From a virus (Duplodnaviria; Caudoviricetes): a DNA stretch of 64,000 nucleotides. The stretch's first letter is position 1. Each line of letters begins with the position of its first letter. The notes beneath the pieces were generated by a model, which worked only from the letters and a program-made list of their open reading frames with translations, ran no database searches and was not told the DNA's origin. The translations under genes were made by a program, and so were the position numbers. Shown piece after piece: positions 4,085 through 22,814 of the stretch. The stretch is from the IMG/VR virus record IMGVR_UViG_3300036770_007283; one strand, 5' to 3'.

Positions 4085-5599
4085 TTAAGGATTTAAAACC
4101 CAAAGCCTCTGGCCAGCATCCCAAATCTTAACCCAACCCAGCTCTTTTGCATATTCCTCCTGTGATAGATTACGATCATCCATATTGGCTCTACACCTTA
4201 ATCTGTTAAAGGTATCATTATGATTAGTCCAATCAAAATCAATAATATCCTCGGATTTTTTAAATCCTAATTTTTCTAAAAAATCTCCAGTTTCATACCT
4301 TAAATCAATTCTATAGTGAATGGGTAAACCTGGATAATTTTTTCTAATATTAGATATGATATTCGAAACACCATCAGCTACAAATGTATTATTTTTTGAA
4401 CAAAGTCTTTCTATATTTATCTTATCTGGATAAATCGAATAAGATACAGCCATAACCAGTTCATCATTTAGAATTAAACCAAAGAATTCCCCATCAGAAA
4501 ATCCTGATAAATTATTGGCCTCAAAGAATAACTGAGCAGATGAAACATTCAAAGGAACTAAAGTTGCTTCACTGGCAGAAATATTTTTACTATTTCCTAA
4601 GTAATTATTGAGGATTGACCTAACTATATCAGTTTTTTGGAAAACTTCATTTTCCCTAAATTGAAATATTCTTAGTCCAAAATCCTCAAAGCTCTTCCTC
4701 AGGTCAAAGTGATAATTATTATTTTTCTGGCTTGATTCAGAATGCCAATATATTCCATCTACATTTACTGCAGTTTTGTTATTGATTTTAAAGTCTGGCT
4801 TATATTTTAATTTTGGATATAATTCGGAATCAAACATTTTATTATAAAATTTAACATTGAAGTTTTCAGAAAAGAATATTTCTAGACGACTTAGCGGAGA
4901 TTTACGATCAGCGACATATTTATTAACATATTCATAGACTTTATCCAAAGAAACTTCTTCTGGCGTCGCGAAAAGCCTATAAACGTTAAGTGGCGGAACT
5001 CTATATCTAACACAGATGCTGTTTATGGTATCATCTCCATCAACAAACTTAACCATTCCAGACTTTTCCTTTGTCTTCATTGCTTTAAAATTAATTTTCT
5101 TTGATTGTGCCGGATGCTTCACCCCAAATCTTTTTAAGTTTGTCTTGTAAGTTTTTTCCCGAATCTTTTTACTTTTCATAGGGTTATCTACCCCATGACG
5201 ATCAATCATAGACTTTTTTATCTTTTCTTTCACAGCTTCAGATTGAAATGCATGTTCTGTGTTAAATCTTTCAAGATTTGTTTGGACTACTTTCTCCATT
5301 CTAGTTTTTTGCAAAACTTCATGATCTTTTTTAATACCAAAGACCCTAAGAGCCGTGGCTATTGTAGGATCTGTAACTCCGCATAGTTCAGCAATCTGCG
5401 TAGTTGTTAAGTTTTCCATAATATATTTATTATGCAACCATTCTTTGTCCATATATACTTTGGATTTAGATAGTTCATATTTTTCTACACGCTTCTTTAC
5501 ATAGTTATAAGTTCGACCAATTTGTTTTGCGATTTGGTTGATGCTCAAATCTTCTTCTATATATAGGCGTTCTAATTCATCTTTCGTTAAATTCATCAT
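4085..5599 (-). CDS. Multi-domain homing-endonuclease-like protein (2 HTH, TNLxRFG-type repeats, Vsr/DUF559-like nuclease, C-terminal Hef/Mom-like GNAT-type region)
   Basis: Two HTH-like units (LSINQIAKQIG, LTTTQIAELCGV), repeats TNLERFNTEHAFQS / TNLKRFGVKHPAQS, KPDF...AVNVDGIYWHS, C-terminal GLILNDELVMAVS...ERLCSK...LEKLGF...IWDAGQRLW. Sits directly after nrdB. Confidence 0.7.
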   Translation of the reverse strand: MMNLTKDELERLYIEEDLSINQIAKQIGRTYNYVKKRVEKYELSKSKVYMDKEWLHNKYIMENLTTTQIAELCGVTDPTIATALRVFGIKKDHEVLQKTRMEKVVQTNLERFNTEHAFQSEAVKEKIKKSMIDRHGVDNPMKSKKIREKTYKTNLKRFGVKHPAQSKKINFKAMKTKEKSGMVKFVDGDDTINSICVRYRVPPLNVYRLFATPEEVSLDKVYEYVNKYVADRKSPLSRLEIFFSENFNVKFYNKMFDSELYPKLKYKPDFKINNKTAVNVDGIYWHSESSQKNNNYHFDLRKSFEDFGLRIFQFRENEVFQKTDIVRSILNNYLGNSKNISASEATLVPLNVSSAQLFFEANNLSGFSDGEFFGLILNDELVMAVSYSIYPDKINIERLCSKNNTFVADGVSNIISNIRKNYPGLPIHYRIDLRYETGDFLEKLGFKKSEDIIDFDWTNHNDTFNRLRCRANMDDRNLSQEEYAKELGWVKIWDAGQRLWVLNP

Positions 5600-5628: not shown

Positions 5629-6597
5629 TTACCAGTTCCAATCGCCATTTAATCCAGATTTTGAGTAATCTGTTACCCTTTTCTCAAAGAAGTTGCTCAT
5701 AGAATCCCCATTTAACAGCCAATCGAGCCATGGAAGTGGATTATCTTTTACGCCATAATTTGGTTTTAGTCCTAGCTGAATTAGTCTTCGGTCTGCAATG
5801 AATCTAATGTATTGTTTCATCTCTGCTTTTGTTAGTCCTTCAATTTCACCCATTTTATAAGCCAAATCAATAATCTTATCTTCTAAATCTACTGCAGTTC
5901 TATACATATCGTAGATTTCTTTTTTAAATTCATCATTTACAATCTTAGGGTGTTCTTCACAGAATGTACGGAACAAGTGGGACATATACTGTACGTGAAT
6001 AGATTCATCACGAATTGACCATTCTACGATGGTACACATGCCTTTCATTTTTCCGAATCTTTGATAATTAAGAAGCATGACGAAGGCAGAAAATAAGCTC
6101 ATACCTTCATTGCAGACGCTTTGGGCTAGTGAGAGTCCGATACCTTTCTTAGTAGATACATTGTTTTTTTGCATGAAGGCAATTTTATCAGCCATCTGGT
6201 GATATTCCATGAAGGCCCAATATTCTTTTTCAGCTAGGCCAAGGGTATCATTTAGTAGTGCATAGGCTCTTTGGTGAGTGCCTTCACGATTAGCGAAAGA
6301 AAGGAGCATGTTACGAATTTCATTATTTTTGAAGACTGGAATAAATAATTCGCAATAGTTTCCACCAACTTGGACATCTGATTGGGTGAAGAGTCTTAGG
6401 ATTTGGGTGATGTGTTCTTTTTCGACCGGTGTGAGGGCTTGGCTTTTCCATTGATTAATATCTTCTTGCAGTTCTGCTTCCCAAGTACCCCAGTGAATTT
6501 TTTCATGTTCTTCTGCGGCCAACATAGCCCAAGGGTATTGAAAAGGTTTATAAGCTGTACTTGGTTGTAGTAATCCACCATTATTTATCCCTGACAT
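5629..6597 (-). CDS. nrdB: Ribonucleotide reductase class Ia beta subunit
   Basis: FTQSD, REGTHQRAY (radical Tyr), NEGMSLF, RDESIH, NFFE. The start at 6597 has GGAGG 10 nt upstream; the ORF-track start at 6606 is too close to the SD. Confidence 0.95.
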   Translation of the reverse strand: MSGINNGGLLQPSTAYKPFQYPWAMLAAEEHEKIHWGTWEAELQEDINQWKSQALTPVEKEHITQILRLFTQSDVQVGGNYCELFIPVFKNNEIRNMLLSFANREGTHQRAYALLNDTLGLAEKEYWAFMEYHQMADKIAFMQKNNVSTKKGIGLSLAQSVCNEGMSLFSAFVMLLNYQRFGKMKGMCTIVEWSIRDESIHVQYMSHLFRTFCEEHPKIVNDEFKKEIYDMYRTAVDLEDKIIDLAYKMGEIEGLTKAEMKQYIRFIADRRLIQLGLKPNYGVKDNPLPWLDWLLNGDSMSNFFEKRVTDYSKSGLNGDWNW

Positions 6598-9308
6598 GAT
6601 AAGCATTCCTCCTCTTTTCCTGCAACATAATCTGCTAGAGCAACTCTTTCAACTTTGGTTGATACTTTTTCTGGATCAACACCTGCACTGGTTCTTAAAT
6701 AGTATAGTCCCTTTAGTCCATCCTTCCATGCTTTTAGGTGAGTCATTAGAACATAATTTCTATCACCACCTGCTGGGAAGAATAGGTTAACGCTTTGTCC
6801 TTGGCAAATGAATTCTTGTCTTGATGCGGCGTGATCAACAACCCATCGCTGATCTAATTCAAATGCGGTTTTGAATACTGACTTCTCCCATTCACTTAAG
6901 AATTGGAGATGCTGAACAGATCCTTGGGCCAAGATGATGGATTGCCAGGTAGAATCTTTTTGATCTTCTGGAATATACTTTGATAGAACTTTGTCTAGTT
7001 CGGGATTCTTTACTAGGAATGATCCTGTTCTAGTTCTATGAGTATAGGCATTTGATTTCCATGGCTCAATAGAGGCTGAAGTATTTGCAATAATGGAAGA
7101 GTTTGCATTAGGAGCGATAGCTAAAATATGAGAATTTCTTCTGCCAGATCCGATTCCATCCAGATATTCTCCGCGTTCCTTTGCTAATTCTTCAGTAGCC
7201 TCAACTGCTTGAGACTTAATATGAGAGAAAACTTCCATGTTTAGAACTTTTGCTATTACGCTTTCCCAAGGTATATTTTTACTTTGAAGAAGATCATGGA
7301 AGCCCATAGCACCTAGACCAAGTGATCTTTCTCTGGTTGCGCTATAGATAGCCTTATGTAAAACAGGTGGAGCTTGATCAATAAATACTTGCAGAACATT
7401 GTCTAAAAATCTAACAAGATCTTTTACAATAGTCGTATCCTTCCACTCATCATAGTGTCGAAGATTTAGTGAGCTTAGGCAACATACAGCTGTTCTTTCA
7501 GGTCCTGTTGGAAGATGAATCTCATTGCAAAGGTTTGAACCGTGTATTTTGAGACCCAGATCTTTTAATGGCTGTGGTAGATTACGATTTGCTGTATCAA
7601 TAAAGTTTAGATAAGGCTCACCGGTTTGGTATCTGACTTCAATAATTGTTTCTAAAAGCTCTCTAGCGGGAATTGTATCTCTTACTGTTCCATCTGCTGG
7701 ATCTTTAAGCTCCCAGACTTTATTTTCGATGCAAGCCTGCATGAAATCATCAGTAATATTTACAGCGTTATGAAGATTAAAGCATTTACGATTTGGGTCG
7801 CCACCGGTTGGTACACGCATATTCAAAAACTCTAGAATATCGGGATGGCTAATATCTAAGTATGCAGCGTAACTACCCTTCCTGGTATTTCCACAGATAG
7901 TTACAACACCAGAACGTCTAACAAGAAGCATTCCCGTTGAAACCGTTGCGCAATATACCTTTCCAGAATATGGAACTTCTGCAACATTAACCTTCTGAAG
8001 TGTTAGATGCTGATAGGGCCTAATATAGATAGTATAAATATTTTTTCTTGGTTCTGCCCTAACTCGTTCCATCATTCTGGATGTCATATTTGAGATGGCC
8101 ACAATGGCTTGAACAATGTTTGCATTTTCCTTTACAGTGGTGCTGTAGGTAAATCCTTCATAGCCTTCCCCTCGGCTACCAGAATCCCAATGTGATAATT
8201 CCTCAATAAATTGCTGACCCCATGAAGCAGTAATTTCATTTAGATTTACCCATGAGAAACTCTTATTCCCAATGATTGGGGCATGTACATAGAATTTGGT
8301 TGTGCCATAATTTGTCTTTACTTTTGTGAAAGAATATCCACAATCATTTAGGATTTCTTCGATACGTACAATTTTTCTTTCTTTCTTTAAGTGAAAGACG
8401 CAGCCAGAGTCACTTTTATTATTTGAGCCATCAGCCTGGAATGCAATTAAGAATCTTTCATGAGGTGTTAGGCTTTGCTTTGTTCCCTCTACCTTTAAAG
8501 CTGCGGTATGGAATCGCACATCTGCATTTCTTGGAAGTTGATCGGCACGGATCTTTACAAGCCTTCCATCCCATTCCTTCTTTCCATTTACTTTGTTTTT
8601 TCTTTCAATAACCATGGAGTGATTTGGGGTAACTTGTAAATCTACAGAATTATTGCCAGTGCGTACATTAAGAATCTGGCCGACATGTTCTTCCACAACC
8701 AACTCGATCGGTTTGGCAAAGAAGATTTCTCTATTAGAATTTACGTGACCAACCTCAACATCTTCTGGTAATTGGTCAAACCTAACCCATCCAGCAGAGG
8801 TAAGAACTTCTGTATCTGGTGTATAGCAAGTACCCTGCCTGTAGGCATTCATATCTGCATCTACAGTTTTTAAGAATGGAATAGGCCCAGGTGCCTTGTT
8901 TGAAACAGACCTAACAGAAGACCAGTGACCACCGACGCCGCCACCCTTAATGGACAACCAGCGCAATTCTGCTGTATGATCAATTAAACCTTCTAGTGTA
9001 TCATCCACATAAGTTAAGAAGCAAGAAATAGGCAAAGCCTTCCATGGCTTACCTGGGGTTGGTGCATTGCTTAAAACGGGAGAAGCATAAACGAACCAAG
9101 ACTTGCTGGCATAGTCATAAATTCTTTGAGCAAATTCCAAGTCACCACCTGAATAAGCAAGGGCGGCTCGAGCAAAGGATTGTTGTGGTGAAGTTTCTCC
9201 ATCTACTAAGTAGTACTGTTCTAAAAGTTTGTAAGCAAACTCTGTAAAGTCTTTATCCTTATCCAAGTCTAGCTTAATACCAAAATAATTATCCATCTTT
9301 TTCTCCAT
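6585..9308 (-). CDS. nrdA: Ribonucleotide reductase class Ia alpha subunit (no ATP cone) containing an intein
   Basis: PISCF, GGGVG, YRQGT/TRKGSYAAY, GSNLCNEI, APNANSS, GLKGLYY, C-terminal CLSCQG. About 593 aa after splicing. Confidence 0.95.
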   Translation of the reverse strand: MEKKMDNYFGIKLDLDKDKDFTEFAYKLLEQYYLVDGETSPQQSFARAALAYSGGDLEFAQRIYDYASKSWFVYASPVLSNAPTPGKPWKALPISCFLTYVDDTLEGLIDHTAELRWLSIKGGGVGGHWSSVRSVSNKAPGPIPFLKTVDADMNAYRQGTCYTPDTEVLTSAGWVRFDQLPEDVEVGHVNSNREIFFAKPIELVVEEHVGQILNVRTGNNSVDLQVTPNHSMVIERKNKVNGKKEWDGRLVKIRADQLPRNADVRFHTAALKVEGTKQSLTPHERFLIAFQADGSNNKSDSGCVFHLKKERKIVRIEEILNDCGYSFTKVKTNYGTTKFYVHAPIIGNKSFSWVNLNEITASWGQQFIEELSHWDSGSRGEGYEGFTYSTTVKENANIVQAIVAISNMTSRMMERVRAEPRKNIYTIYIRPYQHLTLQKVNVAEVPYSGKVYCATVSTGMLLVRRSGVVTICGNTRKGSYAAYLDISHPDILEFLNMRVPTGGDPNRKCFNLHNAVNITDDFMQACIENKVWELKDPADGTVRDTIPARELLETIIEVRYQTGEPYLNFIDTANRNLPQPLKDLGLKIHGSNLCNEIHLPTGPERTAVCCLSSLNLRHYDEWKDTTIVKDLVRFLDNVLQVFIDQAPPVLHKAIYSATRERSLGLGAMGFHDLLQSKNIPWESVIAKVLNMEVFSHIKSQAVEATEELAKERGEYLDGIGSGRRNSHILAIAPNANSSIIANTSASIEPWKSNAYTHRTRTGSFLVKNPELDKVLSKYIPEDQKDSTWQSIILAQGSVQHLQFLSEWEKSVFKTAFELDQRWVVDHAASRQEFICQGQSVNLFFPAGGDRNYVLMTHLKAWKDGLKGLYYLRTSAGVDPEKVSTKVERVALADYVAGKEEECLSCQG
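7887..8828 (-). mobile_element. Intein in NrdA (314 aa, degenerate LAGLIDADG-type)
   Basis: Begins CYTPDTEVLTSAGW and ends YCATVSTGMLLVRRSGVVTICGN, followed by +1 Thr. Internal FLIAFQADGS and FIEELSHWDSG blocks. Confidence 0.92.
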
Positions 9309-9560
9309 AAAACAAAGATATCACTGTTTCAGCCGATTGATGTCTGAATCTAGTATAAGTCCTTCAAAAATTAATAGTGTTTTTTTACCCTAAAACTAAT
9401 TTAAAAAATATAATTATGTAAATCATTAGAATAATTTTTTTAAATTAATTTTATTTGTTTCTATTAATGAAATATTGTGCATGATAAACAATAGCATTTC
9501 CCCAGTTTTTATATAGTACCGGGGTCTATTTATGGCGACTAATAAATAACAAACCTGGTT

Positions 9561-10976
9561 TTACTTTTTAGGTTTTGCGCTCTCTGGATCGTGGGAAAAG
9601 CCTTCTTCGTCGTAGGTATAATGTAAAACCTCGCCTTTATCATCTACCGTTTGCAAGTTAATAATTCCGCCCCAAACTTCTTGCAGATATCCCATTACCT
9701 TTGAGATATGCTTTGGATCAAGTGTGCCTATTTCTGTACTATCATGGACCAACTCTAATCCGCCTGGTGATGCAGAATCAATATAAATTAGTGGTGACTG
9801 ATAATTATATATTTTACTGGTTAGACTTTCCACTACATCTTTGGCATCCGTACTTTTAATTTCAATATACTGGTCTCTGCCTTTGTCATAATGTGTTTTA
9901 TAAGTAAACATTTGAAGTTCATCAACCAACTCTTGGGTTAGGTAAGAACGCAAAAAAGAAATATCATCTTCTTCTTCTACAACTTCAAGCATCTTTTGGA
10001 AGCCATTTATTTTTGATTCACCTTTTTCAAATTTAAGATCCCATCTTTTCTTGATATCATTAAAGATAGTAAAGCCTAAAAAGTAAGGATTGATATTAAG
10101 CTTACTTCCACCGGGCTGGACTACCTTCTCATGAATTTTAACGAATTCAAGATATTCTGAAGTACTTAAAATATCATCATTCATTAAGTACATGAGTTCC
10201 GCATGAACATAGCTGGCAAAGCCTTCGTTCATAATCTTGGTGCAATATTGTGGATAGAAATAAAAAGATTCCTCGCGAGTGATTTCGAAGATATCCTTTT
10301 CCCAACCTTCTAGGTCAGCATGATTAGATATAAACCAAAGTAGATCATATTCTTTCTCTGGTGGGAATTTTTCATTGATAACTTCTTCTTTATATCCTGC
10401 CCTTTGAATTCCGTAGATATCATCAAATTCTCCAGATTTAAGTTTTCTTAGAATCTTCTTCTTTTTTCCATAGGGTTTCCTATGGATTCCTTTATGCCAG
10501 TCTATATTCTTATCCATGGAGAAAGCAATATCCATCAGATGCTCTACTTTCTCTATGCCATACTGTGCAATATAATCTTCTACTCTTTGGGCCCGTTCTG
10601 CAGCATGATAAACCATCTTTCTATCTGTAAGCTTAAATAGATAATTATTCTTGAAAAAGTGAACGTGACCAATTACGTGAGCAATAACCATGGTATTTGC
10701 AATATCTGAATTGGTTTCCAGAAGAAAAGCATAAGAAGGATTATTATTAAGGACCAACTCATAAACCTTTGATAAGCCCATCTCTCCTTGAATCTTTTGA
10801 TAAGTATAACTTTGGCCATAACTCCAGTGTCTTGCTCGGGTAGGTAATCCGTAACTCATAATTTCTAGCAAAACTTCTTCTGGAACTACTTCCCAATTGA
10901 TTGGGAAAAAATCTAGTCCCATTTCTTTAGATTTTTTTTCGAACCAAAGGGTTCTTTTTTCTAATAGCTCTTTCAA
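9561..10976 (-). CDS. spoVR: SpoVR/YcgB family protein
   Basis: YGLPTRARHWSYG, YELVLNNNPSYAFL, AHVIGHVHFFKNN, YFYPQYCTKIMNEGFASYVH, INPYFLG. Confidence 0.95.
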   Translation of the reverse strand: MKELLEKRTLWFEKKSKEMGLDFFPINWEVVPEEVLLEIMSYGLPTRARHWSYGQSYTYQKIQGEMGLSKVYELVLNNNPSYAFLLETNSDIANTMVIAHVIGHVHFFKNNYLFKLTDRKMVYHAAERAQRVEDYIAQYGIEKVEHLMDIAFSMDKNIDWHKGIHRKPYGKKKKILRKLKSGEFDDIYGIQRAGYKEEVINEKFPPEKEYDLLWFISNHADLEGWEKDIFEITREESFYFYPQYCTKIMNEGFASYVHAELMYLMNDDILSTSEYLEFVKIHEKVVQPGGSKLNINPYFLGFTIFNDIKKRWDLKFEKGESKINGFQKMLEVVEEEDDISFLRSYLTQELVDELQMFTYKTHYDKGRDQYIEIKSTDAKDVVESLTSKIYNYQSPLIYIDSASPGGLELVHDSTEIGTLDPKHISKVMGYLQEVWGGIINLQTVDDKGEVLHYTYDEEGFSHDPESAKPKK

Positions 10977-11284
10977 AGTACCGCCTTATTTTGAAAATTT
11001 TTTTCGCACTTAAAAATATCTAAATTAAAAATTATTTTTGTTACAACATCTTCTGGTGCTAAATCTAGAACCTCTTCAAATGTTAAAAGTTTAGGTTCGC
11101 CATTTGTTGGATAGACCACCCAAAAAAAACTAGAAAAAGTTAAGTATATGTATAAATCAGTATCTGGAACACTAAATCTAAAGTGGTCATTCATATCAAT
11201 TAAGAAATCTAAAGGTTTTAAAATACTATAATACCTTGGTTCACTCATCACCCTAAAATCATAGTCATAAACTGTTAATGGCAT
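10973..11284 (-). CDS. Hypothetical protein (103 aa) inserted between yhbH and spoVR
   Basis: Starts 3 nt after the yhbH stop and overlaps the spoVR start by 4 nt. Confidence 0.75.
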   Translation of the reverse strand: MPLTVYDYDFRVMSEPRYYSILKPLDFLIDMNDHFRFSVPDTDLYIYLTFSSFFWVVYPTNGEPKLLTFEEVLDLAPEDVVTKIIFNLDIFKCEKNFQNKAVL

Positions 11285-11287
11285 AGC

Positions 11288-12469
11288 CTATCTTTTTCTT
11301 TTATCAGAGATTCCATCTACATTAAAAAATTTCTTTAAGCCAACGAACACATCATCTCTAGACCTAAATTGCATGGATAGAAATCTTGTTCTTTTAATAT
11401 TTTTATTAAAATGATTAGATAATAACGTCTCTTCGCGCATCCAAGGTGAATTATACATTTCACCCAGGACAACTTCGCCATATCCAATTGCCCTAACCAT
11501 AGGCAATAATTTTTCTACATATTCGACGCAAATTTCATTATCATTAGACCAGTTATCTCCATCGCTAAACTCAAAAACATAATTATTCCAAAGATCTGGT
11601 GGGTGATGAATCTTTATGTGCTCATAGGCCAACTTAAAAGAAGTGCTACAAACGGTACCACCATTAGGACTGATATTAAAGAATTCTTTTTCATCCACAA
11701 CAAATGCGGTGGCATCGTGGGCAATAAAAACAAGATCAATCTTTTTATATCTTCTCTTTAAAAACTGCACCATCCAAAAGTAAAAGGATTTTGCAATGTA
11801 AGTTTTTTCTTTATCCATAGAAGCGCTTCTATCCATCATAAGATAGATTGCAGCATTAGAATGGTATTCCTTTTCGGTTTCCCAAACTTTATACCTTAAG
11901 TCTTCTTTGGCAAAAGAACCAACTTTTGCATCACCTTTGGCTGCATTTCTTTTTATGTTCTCAATTAAAGTCTTTTTAAGATCTAAGTTTGGGTAGATGC
12001 CTTTTTTATCAATCGAACCAATTTCGTCGTGTTCAATTTCTATTTGGGATGTATTTTTAGGATCGATCCAAGGCAAGTTAAGCTCTTCCATCAGAATATT
12101 AACTAGTTCATCAATAGTTATTTCTGCTTCAAATAGTCTTTCGCCTTCTTCATTCCCGGCTGGTCCAACTTCACCATCTTTGTCACCTGACTTAACCTTA
12201 AACTTATCGCCAGGCTTGGTGCCGATACCCTGGCCGGTGCCTTGGTTGTTGTTTAACTTACCATACTTGAAACGATACATATCTAAAAATTTGATAGGAA
12301 TCTTTATCTTTTTATCCCCATCAGATTTGATAATATTGTATTCAGTAATAAGGTCTTTACCATTTTTTCTAATGGCTCTTTCAACCAGCTCCTTCTGCCT
12401 TTCAGAGTCTCTCTTGCCCCGTTTCTTGAGCTTCCAGATATCTGAAAGGCTGTCATAATTGTCAGCCAT
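11288..12469 (-). CDS. yhbH: YhbH/YeaH (DUF444) vWA-domain protein
   Basis: G-rich GQGIGTKPGD, MIDAS DRSASM, NGGT, FSDGDNW, ELNLPWI. Confidence 0.93.
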   Translation of the reverse strand: MADNYDSLSDIWKLKKRGKRDSERQKELVERAIRKNGKDLITEYNIIKSDGDKKIKIPIKFLDMYRFKYGKLNNNQGTGQGIGTKPGDKFKVKSGDKDGEVGPAGNEEGERLFEAEITIDELVNILMEELNLPWIDPKNTSQIEIEHDEIGSIDKKGIYPNLDLKKTLIENIKRNAAKGDAKVGSFAKEDLRYKVWETEKEYHSNAAIYLMMDRSASMDKEKTYIAKSFYFWMVQFLKRRYKKIDLVFIAHDATAFVVDEKEFFNISPNGGTVCSTSFKLAYEHIKIHHPPDLWNNYVFEFSDGDNWSNDNEICVEYVEKLLPMVRAIGYGEVVLGEMYNSPWMREETLLSNHFNKNIKRTRFLSMQFRSRDDVFVGLKKFFNVDGISDKRKR

Positions 12470-12479
12470 ATAGACCTCC

Positions 12480-14375
12480 TTACTTTCTAGCCATTAAGGA
12501 ATTAACATACCTGAGCAATTGATTGGCACTATCGGCTGTATAACCATACTTGTCACAAAGTGTTTTAACAACAACATTGATCTTCTTGAGTTCTTCCTCA
12601 TCAGGATTTCTAGCAGATACCGTAAGGCGAATAACGTCCTGTCTTTCGTCAAAGAGTTGCTTCTCTAGGGCTTGCTTTAGGGCGGGATGGTCTTCATACC
12701 TACAACCATTCTTAAGCATCTTTCTTAGAATTTCTTGACGGAAGGATTTCTTGCCAGATTCTGTGATGCCTACCTTTTCCTCAATGCTTCTCATGAGCCT
12801 TTCATCTGGCTGTGTCTTAACACCCCATTCGTTTTCTACCATACTTCCATCCAGAAATGCTTCTACCTGGTCCATATAGTTTTTGAGTAGGTTTTTAATT
12901 TCACCTTCAAAGTTAACGAAGAAAGCTTTTTGTACATCATTTTTGGCTAGTTTTTCATATTCTTCTACAACAGTCATTAAGATTACTTCTAGCCTTTCGC
13001 CTTCTTTTTTATCAATCTTTGGATTGCTCTTCATACCATCACGAAGTGATCTTACGATATCTAGTGGCGTAACTGAAGTTACTTCTTGTTCTGCTAGCTT
13101 AGATGCAATACGATTGATTACATACCTTGGAGATATACCAATCATGCCTTCGTCATCATGCTCTTTCTTAAACTTAGGTGCTTCAGATAGTGTAAAGCCA
13201 TTAACCTCTTCACCATTATACATTTTCATTTTATTAATTAAAGAAAGTGATTGGTTACTAGATTCTTTTAGCCTGGATAGAATAGAAAACATAGCGGCGC
13301 ACTTTAAGGTGTGTGGTGCAATATGCTTTCCTTTGAAGTTGGCTTGTTCAATTAGCTTTTCATAAATTTTAATCTCACTATCTAAGGTGAGGTTGTATGG
13401 AAATCTAACTACAATAGTTCTATCATGCAATGCTTCCATCTCTTCTTTTCCAAGGAATCTTTTGTATTCAGATTCGTTGGTATGGCTTAAGATAAATTCA
13501 TCAGCCCAGATTAAAGGGAATCTGCCAGTTTTAATATTTTTTTCTTGTGCTAAGGTTAGTAGAACATAAAGGAACTTTTGGTCTACCTTTAACATTTCTA
13601 CGAATTCCATTAAACCTCTGTTTGCCACGTTAAGCTCACCATCAAATCGGTAGGCTCTGGGGTCTGACTCAGCACCGTATTCACCAATGGTGCTTAGATC
13701 AATAGAACCAACTAATTCAGAAATATCTTGGCTTTTCTTGTCTGATGGTACGAAGGTTCCAATACCTACGCGGGCCTTTTCAGAATAGAAGATTCTTTTA
13801 ACTGGTAAATTCATAAAGTTACCTGCATACTTTTCTTTCAAGATAACTTCCATGATTGGGCTTAGTGTTCCATCAATTTTAATTCCATATTCTTTTAAGA
13901 ACTTAGATCTAAGGTCTTCTGGAATTGCACAGAGTGGATCTTCGTGCATTGGGGAGTCAGATAGGGCATAGATTGCACCCTCATCTGTTTTAGCAAACTG
14001 TTCCATACCACGCTTTAATAGGATGGCTAATTGTGACTTACCAGAAGAGGTTGGTCCGTATAGCAATAAGATTCTTCGGCCTACTTCAGAGCCTGCGGCA
14101 GCAGCCCTAAGATATGCCATAATTTCTTCAATTGGCTCTTGAACACCGAACAGATCCTTGGAGAAGAATCCATAACTGACTACCTTACCATCAGCATCCT
14201 TTTCAACACCGGCTGACTCAATCATTTTAAGAACTCTGGCATGGGCACCCATATGAATCTCTGGATTCTCAATGACCATCTTAATATAATCTCTTAAAGT
14301 TCCAGACCACTCCTGTTTGGTTCTTGACTCGAGATGGGTGTCAATCATATCTAAAAATGTATCTGTAGCCGCCAT
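12480..14375 (-). CDS. prkA: PrkA/YeaG family AAA+ protein
   Basis: RRILLLYGPTSSGKS (Walker A), SPMHEDPL, DISELVG, DPRAYRFDGELNVANRGLMEFVEMLK, PYNL; 631 aa. Confidence 0.96.
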   Translation of the reverse strand: MAATDTFLDMIDTHLESRTKQEWSGTLRDYIKMVIENPEIHMGAHARVLKMIESAGVEKDADGKVVSYGFFSKDLFGVQEPIEEIMAYLRAAAAGSEVGRRILLLYGPTSSGKSQLAILLKRGMEQFAKTDEGAIYALSDSPMHEDPLCAIPEDLRSKFLKEYGIKIDGTLSPIMEVILKEKYAGNFMNLPVKRIFYSEKARVGIGTFVPSDKKSQDISELVGSIDLSTIGEYGAESDPRAYRFDGELNVANRGLMEFVEMLKVDQKFLYVLLTLAQEKNIKTGRFPLIWADEFILSHTNESEYKRFLGKEEMEALHDRTIVVRFPYNLTLDSEIKIYEKLIEQANFKGKHIAPHTLKCAAMFSILSRLKESSNQSLSLINKMKMYNGEEVNGFTLSEAPKFKKEHDDEGMIGISPRYVINRIASKLAEQEVTSVTPLDIVRSLRDGMKSNPKIDKKEGERLEVILMTVVEEYEKLAKNDVQKAFFVNFEGEIKNLLKNYMDQVEAFLDGSMVENEWGVKTQPDERLMRSIEEKVGITESGKKSFRQEILRKMLKNGCRYEDHPALKQALEKQLFDERQDVIRLTVSARNPDEEELKKINVVVKTLCDKYGYTADSANQLLRYVNSLMARK

Positions 14376-14377
14376 TA

Positions 14378-14680
14378 TTACACTCCTCCGGTATTTTTAT
14401 AAGGATTAGTCCTATCACCATATACATCTTCAATCGCTCGATGGTCACCTTTACCTATTTTATTAACAGTTTTACGCACTTCATCTTGAATCTCTAAAAT
14501 TAACTGATCGGTTGATTTTTCAACGGTGGCTGCAATGCTAACAATTTTTTGTGATATAAAACCAGTATCACATACTTTACATTTAACCTTACCTTTCTTA
14601 AGCTCTAAATATTCTGGAATAGATAAAAATAATTCTAGATTCTCATTACAATGTAAGCAAACAAAACTATAACTTGGCAT
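14378..14680 (-). CDS. FmdB-family zinc-ribbon protein
   Basis: MPSYSFVCLHC...KCKVC with GAGGA upstream of ATG 14680. The ORF track over-extends it to 14779. Confidence 0.8.
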   Translation of the reverse strand: MPSYSFVCLHCNENLELFLSIPEYLELKKGKVKCKVCDTGFISQKIVSIAATVEKSTDQLILEIQDEVRKTVNKIGKGDHRAIEDVYGDRTNPYKNTGGV

Positions 14681-14861
14681 TAGATTCCTCCGTGGGAATA
14701 AAAATAATCTGGTCGCCCTCAAATTCCAAGTTGCCAGACAAAGAAAGATCACGAAGGATTTTCTTCTTAAACTTTGCATCAGTAATCTGAATAGTCAACT
14801 CTAATTCATTACTATCTGATAACTTTATATTTTTAATTTTTCCTACTGTTTCTTTTTTCAT
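14667..14861 (-). CDS. Hypothetical protein (~64 aa)
   Basis: Co-oriented, with overlaps on both sides; start uncertain (14861 or 14879). Confidence 0.6.
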   Translation of the reverse strand: MKKETVGKIKNIKLSDSNELELTIQITDAKFKKKILRDLSLSGNLEFEGDQIIFIPTEESNAKL

Positions 14862-15141
14862 TTCTTCTTTCATTTTCAAAAAAACTATTTAAGACTTCTT
14901 TTACCAAGGGACTCTTTTGGTTTAATAAATAAAATAGTTCATAATTATCAACCACTTCATGGTTTTTTAGTTTACAAACTTCTGCTCTTATCTTAGGGAT
15001 AAAATCTAAGGGATGGTCCGACTCTAGCATTGGATTCATAGGTAGAAGATCTATGTTGCCTTTAGAAATCTTGTAAACAATATATTTATACCTTCCGATT
15101 TTTAGAACATCATTTTTTTTCAAAGAAATTTTTTCAGACAA
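14833..15141 (-). CDS. Hypothetical protein (102 aa)
   Basis: Overlaps the dnaB stop; no motif recognised. Confidence 0.65.
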   Translation of the reverse strand: MSEKISLKKNDVLKIGRYKYIVYKISKGNIDLLPMNPMLESDHPLDFIPKIRAEVCKLKNHEVVDNYELFYLLNQKSPLVKEVLNSFFENERRNEKRNSRKN

Positions 15142-16492
15142 GACGATTCTCCTCCCCTAAATCACCCACCCAATTATCCGGCATACTTGTAACTTTTGAT
15201 TTCTCAAATTCTTTATACAGCTTGATCTCACCCTTAGCACCATCACGATTCTTAACAATATGGATTACCATATCGTCACGTAACAACTCATCATCCCTTT
15301 GTTCAATAAGCAATACAATGTTAGCGTTGTCACCAATCATCTTTGAACGACCTAATTCTTCTAGATCGTTAGACTGACCCTTGGTAGCCTTATTCCTCGC
15401 CTTTCTTTGTGCTGCGGTTAATACAGCAATGTTTTTATTACGACAGAATTCGTGTAAGTCTTCTGCAACGTGACCAACTTCTAGCCAGTCTTGTCCGAAA
15501 TCTTTGTTAGGCTTCATAATGCCAAGATAGTCTACCACAACCAGGTCGGGTTGAAATTCAGAAAGAATAGAATCATACCTAGCCTCAATATCAAGGGTTC
15601 TTGAGCCACGAGGCATGTCTACAATATAAAACTTTTTATCATACTTCTTCTGAAAGTCTAATGAGCTTTTCCATCTTTGCTTTTCTTCTGGCGTAAGTTG
15701 TCCACGCATAATTGCTTTGTGTCGAACATTAGCCATGTTAGCATCAATTCTTTGTTCTAATTGTCGTTTACTCATTTCTAGTGTAAAGTAAACTACATTC
15801 TTACCACCTTCCAACATCTCATTGTATAGATCGCCTGGCTTGTTAGGACCTAGCCAAGCATTAATAGCATAGTTCATCATCAGCAAGCTTTTACCGCTAG
15901 AAGAAGCACCAGAAATAATCATTAACTCTGATTGCTTGATGCCATAAGTATAATCATCAATCTCTGAAAAGCCTGACATTACACCAGTAGTAAGATTGGG
16001 GTTTTGCTCTGTAAACAAATAATCATTATATCTGTCCTCTACCGAATTGCTGAAATTTCCTTCCGCAAAGACCGATGCCCTCTTCAACCTTTCGATTTTG
16101 GCTGCTACGCTAATAATGTTGGAATTAAATTCTTCGATGTCTACACTTTCTTCTGAAATTGATTTTGCCAAGTTAGTTGCGATTTTGGCATTATATCTTT
16201 GCTTAACCTGATCAACATAAAAAAGTATTTCAGATTCTTCGCAAGACTCTTCTTCAATTAAAGAAATAAGCTGTACAGTATCAATATCATCTGCTAAGTT
16301 TTCTAACAAAACCTTATATGATGGTGGTGACTTATATCTGGAATAATACTTTTCAATCAGATCGAACACCGCCTTGAAATCATAATCCAAAGCTTCATAG
16401 AGGATTTTTAAGTCTACATCTCGACTTACCTTGTTATATTCTACGGGCCCTTTCATCATCCAGGATAAAATCTTTTGATCGGCTAGAGACAT
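15134..16492 (-). CDS. dnaB: DnaB-like SF4 replicative helicase
   Basis: SGASSSGKS, YFTLEMS, VVVDYLGIM, VLTAAQ, IVKNRDG. Confidence 0.93.
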   Translation of the reverse strand: MSLADQKILSWMMKGPVEYNKVSRDVDLKILYEALDYDFKAVFDLIEKYYSRYKSPPSYKVLLENLADDIDTVQLISLIEEESCEESEILFYVDQVKQRYNAKIATNLAKSISEESVDIEEFNSNIISVAAKIERLKRASVFAEGNFSNSVEDRYNDYLFTEQNPNLTTGVMSGFSEIDDYTYGIKQSELMIISGASSSGKSLLMMNYAINAWLGPNKPGDLYNEMLEGGKNVVYFTLEMSKRQLEQRIDANMANVRHKAIMRGQLTPEEKQRWKSSLDFQKKYDKKFYIVDMPRGSRTLDIEARYDSILSEFQPDLVVVDYLGIMKPNKDFGQDWLEVGHVAEDLHEFCRNKNIAVLTAAQRKARNKATKGQSNDLEELGRSKMIGDNANIVLLIEQRDDELLRDDMVIHIVKNRDGAKGEIKLYKEFEKSKVTSMPDNWVGDLGEENRLV

Positions 16493-16502
16493 TTACACTC
16501 CA

Positions 16503-17171
16503 TTATTTAGCTTGTGATTTTCTAAAATCACGACCAGATACATAGACAGTTTTTACATATTTTGAAAATAAAGAATCAACAGAACGGGAAAAATCCCCAG
16601 CCAAAACTTCCTTTAGGTCTGCGGTATTAGAGCAGATAATGGTGGGCATCTTGTTCTGAAATCTATGTCGAAAGACTCGCTCCATTGTTTGACCAAAAAG
16701 TTGTTCTGACTTTTCGGAAGGAAAGACCCATCTTGTATCATATTCATCAATAACGACAAAGTCTGTTCCAGTCATTTCGTCAAAAATGCTGGAATTATTA
16801 TCCAAAGATTTCTGGATAATATCACTCATATTGATGTATTTAGTACTGAAACCTGACATTGCTGCTGTCTTTAATAAACAAGAAGCCGCATAGGTTTTAC
16901 CAGTGCCAAAGTTTCCTACAAATGCCAGCGAGGTTCCACTTTCATAAGCTGTGCCAATGCTTTCCATTAAGGAGATAACATATTCTTTAAAGTTTGGATC
17001 ACCCTTAAAATCCTTCATGGAAAGCATCCAATAATCCATGGGAATCTCTGATTTTGCATAGGCCCTAATTCTGGCAATTTTATTTCTACAAAGCGAGCAA
17101 CTTTCGCCATTACATTCACAATCTTTCTTAATCTTCTCCTCTATTAGCGTCATCTTTTTCGGTGGGACCAT
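16503..17171 (-). CDS. DnaC/IstB-like AAA+ helicase loader
   Basis: N-terminal CEC..SCSLC zinc motif, GNFGTGKT, VVIDE, PTIICSN, SGRDFRK; adjacent to dnaB. Confidence 0.85.
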   Translation of the reverse strand: MVPPKKMTLIEEKIKKDCECNGESCSLCRNKIARIRAYAKSEIPMDYWMLSMKDFKGDPNFKEYVISLMESIGTAYESGTSLAFVGNFGTGKTYAASCLLKTAAMSGFSTKYINMSDIIQKSLDNNSSIFDEMTGTDFVVIDEYDTRWVFPSEKSEQLFGQTMERVFRHRFQNKMPTIICSNTADLKEVLAGDFSRSVDSLFSKYVKTVYVSGRDFRKSQAK

Positions 17172-18852: not shown

Positions 18853-21312
18853 TCATCTTTTTTGAACTATGATTTTAAAAGCGGGTTCGTTCTCATAGAT
18901 TTTCTTTCTGATTAAGGAGTGATCCCGTAAATATCTACAGTTATCTAGAAAATCAACAACCACCGCATCTTTTTTATCTTTACCTTTGCGAATTACACGA
19001 CCAATTCTTTGTAGGGCGCGTGCAGAAGATTTACCAGAACCGGCCAAAACCAAGGCATCAAGATTGGGAATATCAATACCCTGATCAAAGATTTTAGAAG
19101 CAATTAAAACATCTAATTCGCCATTCTTCATGGCTTGGATGGCGGCTAGTCGATCCCCGGTCTTGTTACTACCATCGAGGCTGGATACCCTCAAAGTGTC
19201 TTTTAATAAGGATAAGAGATGTTTGCCATGCGAAACCTTAGTCACCAAGATTAGAACCTTTCGACCCTGAGCTACTAACTTTGTGGTTGATTTTAAAATC
19301 AAGTCATTTCTTTCTTCATTTTCCACAATAAAATTTTTATAAACTTCTTGATAAGTTTTGCCGATACCCCTTTGCATAGGAACGTCAACAAAATAAATCT
19401 TAGGGGGAACTAACCATCCTTGTTCAATAAGTGAAGAAGCGTTAAGATCAAAAAACTTTGGTCCACCTACTGATTCTATCAGGATATCATCTCCTGAATC
19501 TCGCCATGGCGTCCCTGATAATAAAAACCTATGCCTGGCCTTTACAGAATTTTTATGTAAAAATTGAATAGTTTCTGATGCAGCATATTGACATTCATCA
19601 ACAATAATCATTTCTGCATTCATAACCATATCTCTAACCATTTCTTTGTTGAGGTTTTTATCTTCTTTGTCTGGGGTTAGGTCACTATCCAAGATTTCTG
19701 CCTTACTACCAAAGGCTGAAGCGGCGCTCCAAATGGTTGCGATTGTAACTTGCTGTACATCACAATGACCATCGCCAACAAGTCCAACTTTAAGATTTGG
19801 ATAAGCTCTTTCTACCGTTTCTTTCATTTGATAAAGAAGCTCTATGCCGATAACATAGATAACAGTCCTAATATTAAACTTACCAGTAATTAGAGATATA
19901 ATAAGGGTCTTTCCAGAATTATGTGTTACGGTAAAATCTCCAAGTAAATACCTATTATCACCATCTAGTTGGAAGCCATAATAATCTCCCAAGCCCATTT
20001 CTTCAAATGTAAAACCTGTAACAAGAACGTCCTTAATTTGATTTCTTTCTGGTGCTCTTTTTCTAGATATTTTGCATGGAATTCTTGTGCAATCTCCAGA
20101 TATATGAACTCTATAATAAAGTCCAGATTTTCCATTATTGGTACAGGTACAAATTTTTTCTTTTAGATAAGCCGACATACCAAGACTTCTTGCAAGGAAA
20201 ATGACATCTTCTGCTAGTTGTTTTGATTTTGAAATATAATCATATCCATTTTTTGATAAAGAGCCATCTGTATCCAGTAATCCGGCCAGCACTTCCAGCC
20301 TCTGTTCCTCATCTCCAGTCTTGAAATCAAGTGGAATGAACTTATCTCCAGAACCTTTTCCAAATAACCCCAAAGATCTCATAATATTTACAAGTGGATT
20401 TTTGCCTATAGTCTTTTCCTGGGATCTGAAATAGTAGGTAATTCTAGATTTTCTAATAGATAAGTTATATTTTTTTGCTATATCATAAACGTATGCAATA
20501 ATTTCTGGATCCGTATTTGTCACGCCCAATTGACCTTTCACTGTACCATCGCCAAGCATTAATCCCAATAGATATGGCTCCAGTGGTAGTTCTTTTTTTG
20601 GAAAGTTAATTGGGACTCTAAAAAGTTTGTGAATGTGCTTGAAGGTTTTATTTTGTTTTTCCCAATCTGAAAACTTAATATCAATAATTTCTCCACCACG
20701 CGGATCATATTTCTCTGTTCTTGTTCTCTTCAGAGATAGGACGTGTTCTTGATTTATAATAAAAGGCGCACCCTTTGTTGGAATTATTTTAACCATTCTA
20801 TCTTGACCACGAAAAAGTTTTAGAACTTTTCTTTCTTTTGAGTCTGGACCCATTAAAATATCACCAACAACAATATCCTCTACAGATTTTGTTGAACCAT
20901 CAAACATCAAAATCTTAGTGCCCTTGGAATGACAGCCCGTTGGAGACTTTATGATTCCGCCACCATGCTTCCAGGCTTTTTTAACAATAGCTGCCTGGTA
21001 GTCTCTAACCTCAAATCCACTGTTTGGATCTAAGGTTAGGCTTTCACCATAAGTAAGAACATCCCTATTATCTTGAATCTGATAAGAGGCATCATTCTTC
21101 TTTAAGATTTTTTCAATGGCAGGCAACAAACCAATCGGGAAATAATGATTCTTGGTAAAAAGCCTTTGCCTACCATCCCAGTTACTTGCCTTATTCATAA
21201 ACTGAAATCCTTGAACAGAATAGCTTAGCTGTTCATCGATCTCATCAATAATCTTTGGATCCCGAAGTCCGATTATTTTGCACTTAACATTTCCAACAAT
21301 TATAGTTAGCAT
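18853..21312 (-). CDS. SF2 DExD/H helicase (UvsW/ResIII-like) containing an intein
   Basis: RDYQ, SPTG/SGKT, IIVDECQ, LSGTP, FDQGIDIP, QRIGRVIR. About 480 aa after splicing. Confidence 0.92.
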   Translation of the reverse strand: MLTIIVGNVKCKIIGLRDPKIIDEIDEQLSYSVQGFQFMNKASNWDGRQRLFTKNHYFPIGLLPAIEKILKKNDASYQIQDNRDVLTYGESLTLDPNSGFEVRDYQAAIVKKAWKHGGGIIKSPTGCHSKGTKILMFDGSTKSVEDIVVGDILMGPDSKERKVLKLFRGQDRMVKIIPTKGAPFIINQEHVLSLKRTRTEKYDPRGGEIIDIKFSDWEKQNKTFKHIHKLFRVPINFPKKELPLEPYLLGLMLGDGTVKGQLGVTNTDPEIIAYVYDIAKKYNLSIRKSRITYYFRSQEKTIGKNPLVNIMRSLGLFGKGSGDKFIPLDFKTGDEEQRLEVLAGLLDTDGSLSKNGYDYISKSKQLAEDVIFLARSLGMSAYLKEKICTCTNNGKSGLYYRVHISGDCTRIPCKISRKRAPERNQIKDVLVTGFTFEEMGLGDYYGFQLDGDNRYLLGDFTVTHNSGKTLIISLITGKFNIRTVIYVIGIELLYQMKETVERAYPNLKVGLVGDGHCDVQQVTIATIWSAASAFGSKAEILDSDLTPDKEDKNLNKEMVRDMVMNAEMIIVDECQYAASETIQFLHKNSVKARHRFLLSGTPWRDSGDDILIESVGGPKFFDLNASSLIEQGWLVPPKIYFVDVPMQRGIGKTYQEVYKNFIVENEERNDLILKSTTKLVAQGRKVLILVTKVSHGKHLLSLLKDTLRVSSLDGSNKTGDRLAAIQAMKNGELDVLIASKIFDQGIDIPNLDALVLAGSGKSSARALQRIGRVIRKGKDKKDAVVVDFLDNCRYLRDHSLIRKKIYENEPAFKIIVQKR
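19918..20934 (-). mobile_element. Intein with LAGLIDADG homing endonuclease (339 aa) in helicase Walker A
   Basis: Begins CHSKGTKILMFDGS and ends YYGFQLDGDNRYLLGDFTVTHN, followed by +1 Ser. Endonuclease motifs YLLGLMLGDG and LAGLLDTDG. Confidence 0.95.
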
Positions 21313-21401: not shown

Positions 21402-22814
21402 CTAGCGTCTTCGCTTATCAATAATCGAAGTTCTAGCGGTAGTGCCTTGAAGTTTATTAAAGCCAGAATTCTTGTTTTTAATCTTTCTCTCAATCTCGTC
21501 TTTAACAGAGCTAACCTTATCTTCACCAAGGTCGAGAGTCATTGCATTAGCCCTTCCCTTTTCCTTGTCAGCAAGCACTGCAGCTTGTGCTTTACTTTCT
21601 TTCTTTAGATTTTCAATACGATCTTGTGGCAGACCCAATCCCGCAAACCAACTATAAATTTTAATGCTATCATTATCCATATCATCTATAGCATAGATAC
21701 CCTGGAAGATGTTGGCACCATTAGTGGATTCTGAAATCATGGAAAAGCAATAATCAATATTGATGGCTGGAAGTTTGCTTAGTGCCTCCTGAGAACCTAA
21801 GATGATTACGCCACCAGTTCTTGTCTGTGTTAGATCAAAACCTTCTGCAAGCATATTGCTGCTTAGACTCTTCATTACAGATTCTGCTAGTGCTGTTTCT
21901 TCTAGATAATCCTCTACCTCTACCATGCCGTAAACTGAGCAATCACCACAAGAAATAATCTTTCCAAAGTCACTTGGGTCTAATGAAGTAAATTGTGATG
22001 GCTGTGAAGTTAGGGTATTAAAAATATTGATTGGTTCCACAATTGCGGAGTTGGCTGTAGACCAAAACTGGGCTTGACTTAAACCACCATAAATTTGCTC
22101 AATTCTAGCATTATCTACCACAACTAGTGATGATATTACATTTGTAGAAGTTAGTTTGGCTAATCTAGCTAGGGTTTCAATAGAATTTTTCTTGGACTGA
22201 GCATCTTCTGTGGCTTTAGGAAGAACATAAATAACGCCAATAGGCATACCTAGGCTAAATAGTAGTGGAACCATAGTATCAACAGAAGAAGAACCAGTTC
22301 CGCCACCACCTGAGATGGCTAGGTACATCATATCATTACCATCTGCGATGGCTTCAACAAACTCCGTTAGTTGTTCTGTACTTTGTTCAAAAATTTGTCT
22401 TCCTAAATCTAGATCCTTTCCAGTTCCGCCAAGACTTCCTTCCAGAAGCAGCTTTTGATTTGGGGCAACATTAATGTAAGCTAAGTCTTGAGCCGAGGTA
22501 TTAACCACGCCTGCGTCATAGCCTAGCCTATGAAATTCTTCTGCAATTCTAGAGCCGGCCTGACCTACACCAATAACACCCATATTAATGCTAACTGTTC
22601 TTTTGGAAACTACTTCTGGCATAACATCACCTTCCACTTTGTTTTTTTCAGCAAGTTTAGCTTTAAGAGCTGCTAGTTTTTCTGGATCCACTTTCCTCTC
22701 CACTTTTTGTTCTGAAAATGCTGCTAAAAGTTTGTCGTTTTCTTCTGATATTTCTTCTGAAGATTTATTTTTAAATGCTGCATCATTTTCTTTAACTATT
22801 ACTTTTTCTGACAT
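21402..22814 (-). CDS. Tubulin/FtsZ-superfamily GTPase (TubZ/PhuZ/CetZ-like)
   Basis: GVIGVGQAGSRIAE, VNTSAQD, GGTGKD, signature GGGGTGS, VVDN, T7-like LDPSDF; basic C-terminus IIDKRRR. Confidence 0.9.
   Translation of the reverse strand: MSEKVIVKENDAAFKNKSSEEISEENDKLLAAFSEQKVERKVDPEKLAALKAKLAEKNKVEGDVMPEVVSKRTVSINMGVIGVGQAGSRIAEEFHRLGYDAGVVNTSAQDLAYINVAPNQKLLLEGSLGGTGKDLDLGRQIFEQSTEQLTEFVEAIADGNDMMYLAISGGGGTGSSSVDTMVPLLFSLGMPIGVIYVLPKATEDAQSKKNSIETLARLAKLTSTNVISSLVVVDNARIEQIYGGLSQAQFWSTANSAIVEPINIFNTLTSQPSQFTSLDPSDFGKIISCGDCSVYGMVEVEDYLEETALAESVMKSLSSNMLAEGFDLTQTRTGGVIILGSQEALSKLPAINIDYCFSMISESTNGANIFQGIYAIDDMDNDSIKIYSWFAGLGLPQDRIENLKKESKAQAAVLADKEKGRANAMTLDLGEDKVSSVKDEIERKIKNKNSGFNKLQGTTARTSIIDKRRR

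Follow-up and report, generated by a model that had tools for sequence, protein, structure and literature searches.

The bacterial gene trio yeaG-yeaH-ycgB, also named prkA-yhbH-spoVR, is to our knowledge one of the most broadly conserved gene sets that still lack a settled mechanism. Here we describe a copy of this module that is carried by an uncultured jumbo phage. It occupies the minus-strand block 9561-14375 of a 64,000-nucleotide (nt) stretch of DNA (IMGVR_UViG_3300036770_007283), which we call the window, and encodes an AAA+ ATPase of the PrkA/YeaG family, a vWA protein of the YhbH/YeaH family and a SpoVR/YcgB-family protein. Two kinds of ATP-dependent system offer a comparison. In FtsH, an AAA+ motor and a zincin domain are fused, and MoxR systems consist of an AAA+ motor and a vWA protein that bears a metal-ion-dependent adhesion site (MIDAS). 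The module would resemble FtsH in having an AAA+ motor and a partner of predicted zincin-like fold, although here these are separate polypeptides, and it resembles MoxR-vWA pairs such as RavA-ViaA in that the motor, PrkA, is paired with a MIDAS-bearing vWA protein, YhbH. It differs from FtsH, Lon and the MoxR systems in the kinase-like C-terminal domain of PrkA and in SpoVR, which lacks the glutamate of the HExxH motif and has no detectable sequence link to peptidases.

The role of the module has been approached in bacteria, where it is a system of stress, starvation and sporulation; induction under starvation or in sporulation, joint action of the three genes and ATP-dependent proteolysis are described for cellular members. 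Starved E. coli depends on YeaG (renamed SpdA) for the largely non-specific degradation of cytoplasmic protein that starvation induces and that yields amino acids and ATP (PMC13684143; October 2026). Mutants of yeaG, yeaH and ycgB show cofitness with r > 0.7 in six bacteria (10.1101/072470), indicating that the three proteins act together. The PrkA of B. subtilis binds and hydrolyses ATP via its Walker A lysine and has no kinase activity; this lysine, K108, is needed for the ATPase and protease activities and for sporulation (PMC9512850).

The copy in the window shares with the bacterial module the same three Pfam families, the order of most bacterial operons and the Walker A, MIDAS and SpoVR motifs. 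In the nearest named cellular loci, which belong to Chloroflexota and Acidobacteriota, PrkA, YhbH and SpoVR follow one another in this order as well. In contrast to the bacterial module, it is phage-encoded and lies inside a run of replication and nucleotide-metabolism genes, its identity to the best cellular homologues found is at most about 50% for PrkA and 35-43% for YhbH and SpoVR, and it adds an FmdB-family zinc-ribbon gene, which is almost never present in bacterial loci, and an open reading frame (ORF) of 103 amino acids (aa). Regulation of the RpoS, sigma-54 or sigma-E type cannot be assumed for the phage copy.

The module is an inherited part of a jumbo-phage family

To find relatives of the phage, IMG/VR was scanned with the window's PrkA, which resulted in 17 loci on viral contigs of 35-395 kb. 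PrkA, YhbH and SpoVR follow DnaB in the same order in 16 of these loci, and the seventeenth ends within PrkA. A clear pair of ribonucleotide reductase (RNR) alpha and beta genes follows the module in three loci (L003, L015 and L017). Three of the IMG/VR relatives are 94-100% complete genomes of 316-395 kb with a single PrkA each, and one of the three has direct terminal repeats. Three closer relatives, with a PrkA 88% identical to that of the window, display an identical layout that includes the small ORF between YhbH and SpoVR. Altogether, the gene order recurs in more than 20 independent jumbo-phage contigs from different samples. Relatives of the 4.8-kb block are detectable at the protein level only; a megablast search with it against 50,697 phage records gave no match.

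Conservation is higher for PrkA than for the replicative helicase. In the IMG/VR jumbo phages of the clade, PrkA is 68-75% identical to the window's protein versus 48-67% for DnaB, and in the comparison with the closest relatives the identities are 88% for PrkA, 84-85% for YhbH, 83-84% for SpoVR and 81% for DnaB. Against the 88%-identical relatives the rate of nonsynonymous substitution (dN) is 0.08-0.11 and the synonymous rate (dS) is at least 2 or saturated, which gives a dN/dS of about 0.04 or below. This ratio is an upper bound only, because dS is saturated even against the closest relatives, and several pairs gave no estimate. The module is intact, holds a fixed position between DnaB and ribonucleotide reductase and is under strong purifying selection. 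These results indicate an accessory module that genuinely belongs to a large uncultured jumbo-phage family and is inherited vertically, in agreement with the initial annotation, which had been made from the sequence alone and had called it phage-borne and complete.

The initial annotation had also named findings that would speak against a phage module, among them a chimeric or host-derived segment or a dN/dS near 1. An assembly chimera, host contamination or a decaying passenger could be suspected, since the genes derive from cells and their order is unchanged in the nearest named cellular homologues. We tested this explanation and rejected it as having next to no chance of being correct. The G+C content is uniform across this part of the window (0.33-0.39), the genes are coupled on the coding strand of the phage, and the best PrkA of the GTDB species representatives, found by a pattern-seeded search, is only about 50% identical, compared with 68-91% among the phage-type sequences. 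Together, the recurrent synteny, which extends to complete genomes and to the one with terminal repeats, and the low dN/dS argue against a chimera, a host fragment and pseudogenisation.

Domains and motifs of the three proteins

PrkA matches both domains of its family, AAA_PrkA (PF08298; E 1.5e-113, 380 bits, profile positions 2-357 of 358) and the C-terminal domain (PF06798; E 4.4e-63, 213.8 bits, positions 1-255 of 255), each with a bit-score cut-off of 25. In a search of the PDB, its residues 19-630 matched the solved structure 9xip with an E of 8.8e-132. The Walker A motif GPTSSGKS corresponds to residues 107-114 with K113 as the lysine; the G-P-x4-K-S pattern is invariant in 22 phage and bacterial sequences, and the other family-invariant residues are also kept. 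YhbH matches DUF444 (PF04285; E 2.3e-82, 277.8 bits), and its MIDAS residues D213-R-S215-A-S217, T272 and D303 are all invariant across 21 phage and bacterial sequences. SpoVR matches PF04293 (E 7.6e-103, 344.8 bits, positions 7-402 of 407). An alignment of 31 sequences revealed 70 invariant positions common to the window's and cellular SpoVR, and the motifs A99-H100-V-I-G-H104 and N250-E251-G252 are invariant throughout this alignment.

The window thus contains the features by which the module is recognised: a two-domain PrkA with the Walker A lysine, a DUF444 protein with the MIDAS (DxSxS...T...D), a PF04293 SpoVR, and the order prkA, yeaH, spoVR on one strand. The three ORFs were confirmed as intact, on the minus strand and at the coordinates and lengths initially reported (Table 1), and the quoted motifs were all found at family-invariant positions. 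The location between replication and deoxynucleoside triphosphate synthesis genes was likewise borne out, with DnaB on one side and RNR alpha and beta on the other. Of the description as a complete trio in operon order, the order and linkage stand; the genes are not contiguous, as the 103-aa ORF splits YhbH from SpoVR. The block is instead made up of five co-oriented, coupled genes encoding the FmdB-family zinc ribbon, PrkA, YhbH, a small lineage-specific ORF and SpoVR.

PrkA phylogeny and other phage carriers

A word-indexed protein search with PrkA gave a best 120 clusters with 67-100% identity, many of which lie on contigs 200-420 kb in length; Tara ocean samples are the source of some. An exhaustive search of 50%-identity representatives identified 483 clusters at E <= 1e-30. 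We calculated a PrkA tree of 118 sequences by a quick method, with support from the Shimodaira-Hasegawa-like approximate likelihood ratio test (SH-aLRT) only. The window's clade (16 rows) is monophyletic with an SH-aLRT of 100 and is nested in a 27-row group of metagenomic sequences only (support 92). Many members of the larger group are 1000-1573 aa long and align in 2-4 matched stretches, indicating inteins. Two of its members were looked up and both have phage-type contexts, one with tubulin, helicase loader, DnaB, zinc ribbon and PrkA, and the other, on a 116-kb contig, with dihydrofolate reductase, a deoxynucleoside monophosphate kinase, the trio and clamp-loader genes.

The sister group consists of four metagenomic proteins, and the one that was looked up has a cellular context with a V-type ATPase, ThiI and a sigma-54 activator. 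The best named cellular PrkA proteins come from Chloroflexota, Thermomicrobiales and Acidobacteriota; they are 47-50% identical and have the same gene order, but they are not the sister group of the window's clade. The tree, which the initial annotation had suggested as a way to find the donor, thus resolved a monophyletic phage clade and did not name the donor.

A search of phage databases for the co-located trio, suggested in the same place, identified it in Thermus phages, in the Ralstonia jumbo phage RsoM2USA, in huge phages and in the IMG/VR jumbo phages. In public records the carriers are the Thermus phages phiYS40, TMA, YS40_Isch, phiLo, Lalka8, Lalka27a, Lalka27b and MN1, RsoM2USA (ORF28-30) and the huge phages LR756511, LR745206 and LR756504; TMA, phiYS40, Lalka27a, Lalka27b and MN1 were seen through their PrkA match only. 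The three genes are adjacent wherever the neighbourhood was read (YS40_Isch, Lalka8, phiLo, RsoM2USA and the three huge phages). The records of YS40_Isch, phiLo and Lalka8 name a serine kinase or AAA ATPase and, between them, SpoVR and a vWA or conserved bacterial protein. In the paper on RsoM2USA, ORF28 is given as SpoVR and ORF30 as PrkA, with the headings 'replication' and 'signal transduction' and no further comment (PMC8504454). Taken across the carriers, the genes are labelled only incidentally, as serine kinase, SpoVR and vWA or hypothetical protein.

The phage copies of PrkA fall into at least four separate clades on the tree. Those of the Thermus phages form a clade of their own, RsoM2USA and two huge phages group with enterobacterial YeaG, and LR756511 groups with other intein-rich metagenomic sequences. 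The known carriers thus lie in clades separate from that of the window, and their PrkA proteins are only 27-39% identical to the window's. In the Thermus phages the order is permuted to vWA-SpoVR-(x)-PrkA and the neighbours are head and terminase genes, unlike the replication setting of the window, and RsoM2USA and the two huge phages have a proteobacterial YeaG type, also unlike the window. In comparison, the window's clade is a different and much larger jumbo-phage family, uncultured and sampled from groundwater, freshwater and the ocean. The membership of this very large, conserved family and a phage-specific zinc-ribbon partner are what our analysis adds to the known carriers.

Enterobacter phage LAU1 (MN688132.1:1-3308) has YeaG and YeaH of the ordinary enterobacterial type with tail-fibre neighbours and no SpoVR, and from the sequence these genes look like host DNA at a prophage border rather than a phage-borne module. 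A sporulation-specific device was rejected as a general reading, because the carriers include phages of Thermus and Ralstonia, which do not sporulate.

Predicted fold of SpoVR and possible role of the module

An AlphaFold2 model of SpoVR, based on the 31 aligned sequences, was obtained with a predicted local distance difference test (pLDDT) score of 82.5 and a predicted template modelling (pTM) score of 0.79. In the model, H100-x3-H104 lies on helix 91-110, while helices 141-153 and 247-269 bear the invariant acids E145 and E251, respectively. In a zincin fold, the active-site helix with its two His residues packs against a helix that holds the third ligand, for which E145 or E251 would be candidates. 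When it was compared with 48,161 PDB representatives using VIA-align, all 50 listed best matches were zincin metallopeptidases or DUF885 relatives; the families among them are DUF885, M1, M32, M3, M4 and ACE. By its model, SpoVR appears to be zincin-like in fold.

Based on these features and on the bacterial work, we propose that during infection the proteins of the module would assemble into an ATP-driven machine for unfolding and degrading, or remodelling, protein. PrkA would be the motor, YhbH the bridge via its metal-dependent adhesion site, and SpoVR a metal-binding partner or hydrolase. Since bacterial YeaG (SpdA) is needed for non-specific turnover in starved E. coli, the phage copy would most likely turn over host cytoplasmic protein. 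Amino acids and energy would thereby become available to construct a very large virion in presumably nutrient-poor hosts, in parallel with the nucleotide-supply genes that adjoin the module. We give this reading about an even chance of being correct; the assembly, substrates, timing and benefit of the phage module are what we infer. Rewiring of starved or dormant hosts, which the initial annotation had proposed, is likewise an inference. The presence of the trio in at least four phage clades and the conservation of PrkA above that of the helicase argue for a portable machine that needs few host-specific partners and pays off in infection.

A more specific form of this proposal is tentative and rather unlikely. 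Here the module would be a split, FtsH-like ATP-dependent metalloprotease with PrkA as motor, YhbH as MIDAS adaptor, a SpoVR that uses an unconventional general base in place of the missing glutamate, and the zinc ribbon as specificity factor, with which jumbo phages would cannibalise the host proteome for amino acids and ATP. If true, this would be the protein-level counterpart of host-DNA recycling and an unrecognised class of auxiliary metabolic function, widespread in phages of ocean, freshwater and groundwater. That large phages of nutrient-poor habitats recycle host protein besides host DNA is a testable idea. The compact, highly conserved and intein-marked phage versions, together with the cultured carriers RsoM2USA and phiYS40, are convenient material for reconstitution.

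Several observations weigh against a role in protein turnover. The biochemistry of the family is disputed: casein degradation by B. subtilis PrkA, which is ATP-dependent and PMSF-sensitive and in this respect Lon-like, is very slow (PMC9512850), and for B. anthracis PrkA both the protease and the kinase activity were negligible in vitro (PMC13001217). The neighbours of the trio in Thermus phages are head and terminase genes instead of replication genes, so its timing or role may differ between lineages. The zincin matches of the SpoVR model cover about 160-200 aligned residues within model region 1-394 with Z scores of 6.5-12.6, and Z scores of 8-13 can come from helical arrangement alone; Foldseek detected no match of the model in the PDB at E <= 0.001. 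The motif H-V-I-G-H is without the catalytic glutamate of HExxH, and V101 is invariant in the 31 sequences. We therefore treat SpoVR as zincin-like in predicted fold only, and membership in the zincin (gluzincin) peptidases was rejected, since the HExxH motif is absent and neither a SpoVR profile search of PDB sequences nor a Pfam scan to E 10 matched a peptidase family. The initially proposed 'AAA+/vWA/metallo-enzyme machine' fits the domains and the zincin-like model. Finally, no RNA run was among the runs listed as containing the window's sequence, and full-text literature searches turned up neither a paper on the trio as a phage system nor a functional study of a phage copy. The module is thus uncharacterised in phages, as initially stated, whereas the implied novelty was overstated, given that the trio is annotated in phiYS40, TMA, phiLo, the Lalka phages and RsoM2USA.

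The same lack of the glutamate, which speaks against a classical peptidase, would suit a targeted regulator or remodeler, which we regard as unlikely overall. In that case PrkA and YhbH would act as a chaperone pair of the MoxR type whose target for activation, metallation or remodelling is SpoVR or a single host complex, and they could block a dormancy, sporulation or stress programme of the host and so keep the cell productive for the phage. The pairing of an AAA+ protein with a vWA protein of invariant MIDAS is consistent with such a role, as are the negligible protease activity and the defined interactome of B. anthracis PrkA (PMC13001217) and the mutant phenotypes of the bacterial trio, which vary by species and have been read as a signalling pathway (10.1101/072470). 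However, YeaG-dependent degradation in E. coli is broad and largely non-specific (PMC13684143), and a generic function fits better than a single target with a trio that occurs in at least four phage clades whose known hosts, Thermus and Ralstonia, are very different. Nor is any candidate client gene conserved beside the module except the zinc-ribbon gene.

The gene neighbourhood bears on two further explanations. That the module serves the development of the phage itself, by quality control or maturation of its replication, compartment or virion proteins, would agree with its position, fixed across the clade, within a run of tubulin, UvsW, uracil-DNA glycosylase, helicase loader and DnaB genes, and with the trio adjoining a minor head protein and TerL in Lalka8 and lying about 4 kb from the terminase in YS40_Isch. 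We consider it improbable, because the cellular homologues need no phage proteins to function, the trio also occurs in unrelated phage lineages whose replication and structural modules differ, and Pfam scans of the three proteins revealed no structural-protein domain or maturation-protease signature. A role in counter-defence, in which the module degrades or disables immune proteins of the host or pre-empts an abortive or dormancy response that the host mounts through its own PrkA system, appears very improbable. Phages often capture host stress modules to subvert them, and the phage-specific zinc-ribbon partner could be a specificity factor; yet the neighbours are replication and nucleotide-metabolism genes, nothing in the data, which include no PADLOC search, ties the trio to defence, and genes for counter-defence tend to evolve fast, so that a PrkA more conserved than the replicative helicase would be unusual among them.

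Small genes that accompany the module

The zinc-ribbon gene directly upstream of PrkA has a weak Pfam match to Zn_ribbon_8, and its nearest Atlas clusters are viral FmdB zinc-ribbon families. The Atlas record begins at residue 34, and thus the real start of the protein is probably Met34, which shortens the gene as given in Table 1. An ORF of 85-133 aa with a CxxC...CxxC pattern lies directly upstream of PrkA, at a distance of -13 to +68 nt, in 21 of the 21 loci of the window's phage clade and also in the huge phage LR756511, compared with only 2 of 78 bacterial loci. Based on this distribution we read the zinc-ribbon protein as a putative phage-specific fourth subunit or regulator.

The 103-aa ORF between YhbH and SpoVR has no Pfam match and no Atlas family. 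The three closest relatives (L109, L110 and L111) have a 99-aa orthologue in this position, with 49-54% identity as measured for L109 and L111, and it is absent from the more distant members of the window's clade. By sequence comparison the ORF appears to be fast-evolving and conserved only among the closest relatives.

Inteins and mobile genes

Inteins typically occupy functionally critical motifs. The window's own PrkA and SpoVR are intein-free, and several relatives carry inteins at conserved sites of both proteins. In SpoVR, inteins of 367-404 aa are located directly after AHVIGH or after NEGFA (L004/L014/L017 and L008/L011/L012), and the PrkA of L017 has an intein of 370 aa between ILSH and TN, within the invariant H-T-N motif. 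Their positions support the importance of these sites. Among the metagenomic PrkA representatives of 1000-1573 aa with 2-4 matched stretches (P0124-P0141 and others), the matches break around query residues 213, 260 and 294. A single PrkA gene could thus hold as many as three inteins, which would make PrkA a notable intein host.

Within the window, two other proteins contain insertions. The UvsW-type helicase has an in-frame intein between UvsW_N and ResIII/Helicase_C, with a Hom_end-associated Hint domain at residues 127-224 and LAGLIDADG_3 at residues 336-409. RNR alpha has an in-frame insert of 314 aa after residue 160, which starts with CYTPDTEV and ends with ...ICGN, followed by T. As it is absent from the 623-aa orthologue of L109, the insert is probably an intein, with an unusual G-N end. 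In relative L010, DUF7487 genes, one of them with HTH_23, lie between PrkA and YhbH and between YhbH and SpoVR (9917-13781 and 14973-16996), and such genes are also found in L009. By their appearance they are free-standing mobile genes which interrupt conserved gene runs, and in the window a gene of this family comes after RNR beta.

Layout of the locus

The genes in this section of the window all share the minus strand and follow one another in the order TubZ/PhuZ-like tubulin, UvsW-type helicase, uracil-DNA glycosylase, two small ORFs, an IstB/DnaC-like loader, DnaB and a 102-aa ORF, followed by the zinc ribbon, PrkA, YhbH, the 103-aa ORF, SpoVR, the intergenic gap, RNR alpha, RNR beta, DUF7487/HTH and PIN-PhoH (Table 1). 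The zinc-ribbon gene ends 2 nt before the start of PrkA, the gaps are 10 nt between PrkA and YhbH and 3 nt between YhbH and the 103-aa ORF, and the 103-aa ORF overlaps the start of SpoVR by 4 nt. Scans of the region for promoters and terminators gave nothing above the shuffled expectation, so that no transcription unit can be defined from them.

Table 1. Features of the PrkA-YhbH-SpoVR block and of its surroundings in the window.
Feature	Position	Strand	Basis
FmdB-family zinc-ribbon protein	14378-14680 from the probable start (100 aa; listed ORF 14378-14779, 133 aa)	-	weak Pfam Zn_ribbon_8 match and Atlas neighbours
PrkA/YeaG-family AAA+ ATPase with PrkA C-terminal (kinase-like) domain, 631 aa	12480-14375	-	PF08298 and PF06798
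YhbH/YeaH (DUF444) vWA protein with complete MIDAS, 393 aa	11288-12469	-	PF04285
103-aa ORF between YhbH and SpoVR, no recognisable family	10973-11284	-	ORF coordinates
SpoVR/YcgB-family protein, 471 aa, TTG start	9561-10976	-	PF04293
AT-rich intergenic gap of 252 nt, closing the packed DnaB-to-SpoVR run before the RNR genes	9309-9560	-	ORF coordinates and sequence
DnaB	15134-16492	-	Pfam
RNR alpha, 907 aa	6585-9308	-	Pfam
RNR beta	5629-6606	-	Pfam
UvsW-type helicase, 819 aa, intein-bearing	18853-21312	-	Pfam
TubZ/PhuZ-like tubulin	21402-22814	-	domain match
DUF7487 gene with HTH, after RNR beta	4085-5599	-	Pfam

A TubZ/PhuZ-like tubulin gene is located upstream of the replication genes both in the window and in the relative L112 (256-1644), whose PrkA is 59% identical, which points to a shared feature of the wider phage family. 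The window's PrkA is recorded on a contig of 252,699 bases. The sequence of the window is present in three runs of one subsurface-metagenome study, with small shares in freshwater and lake runs.

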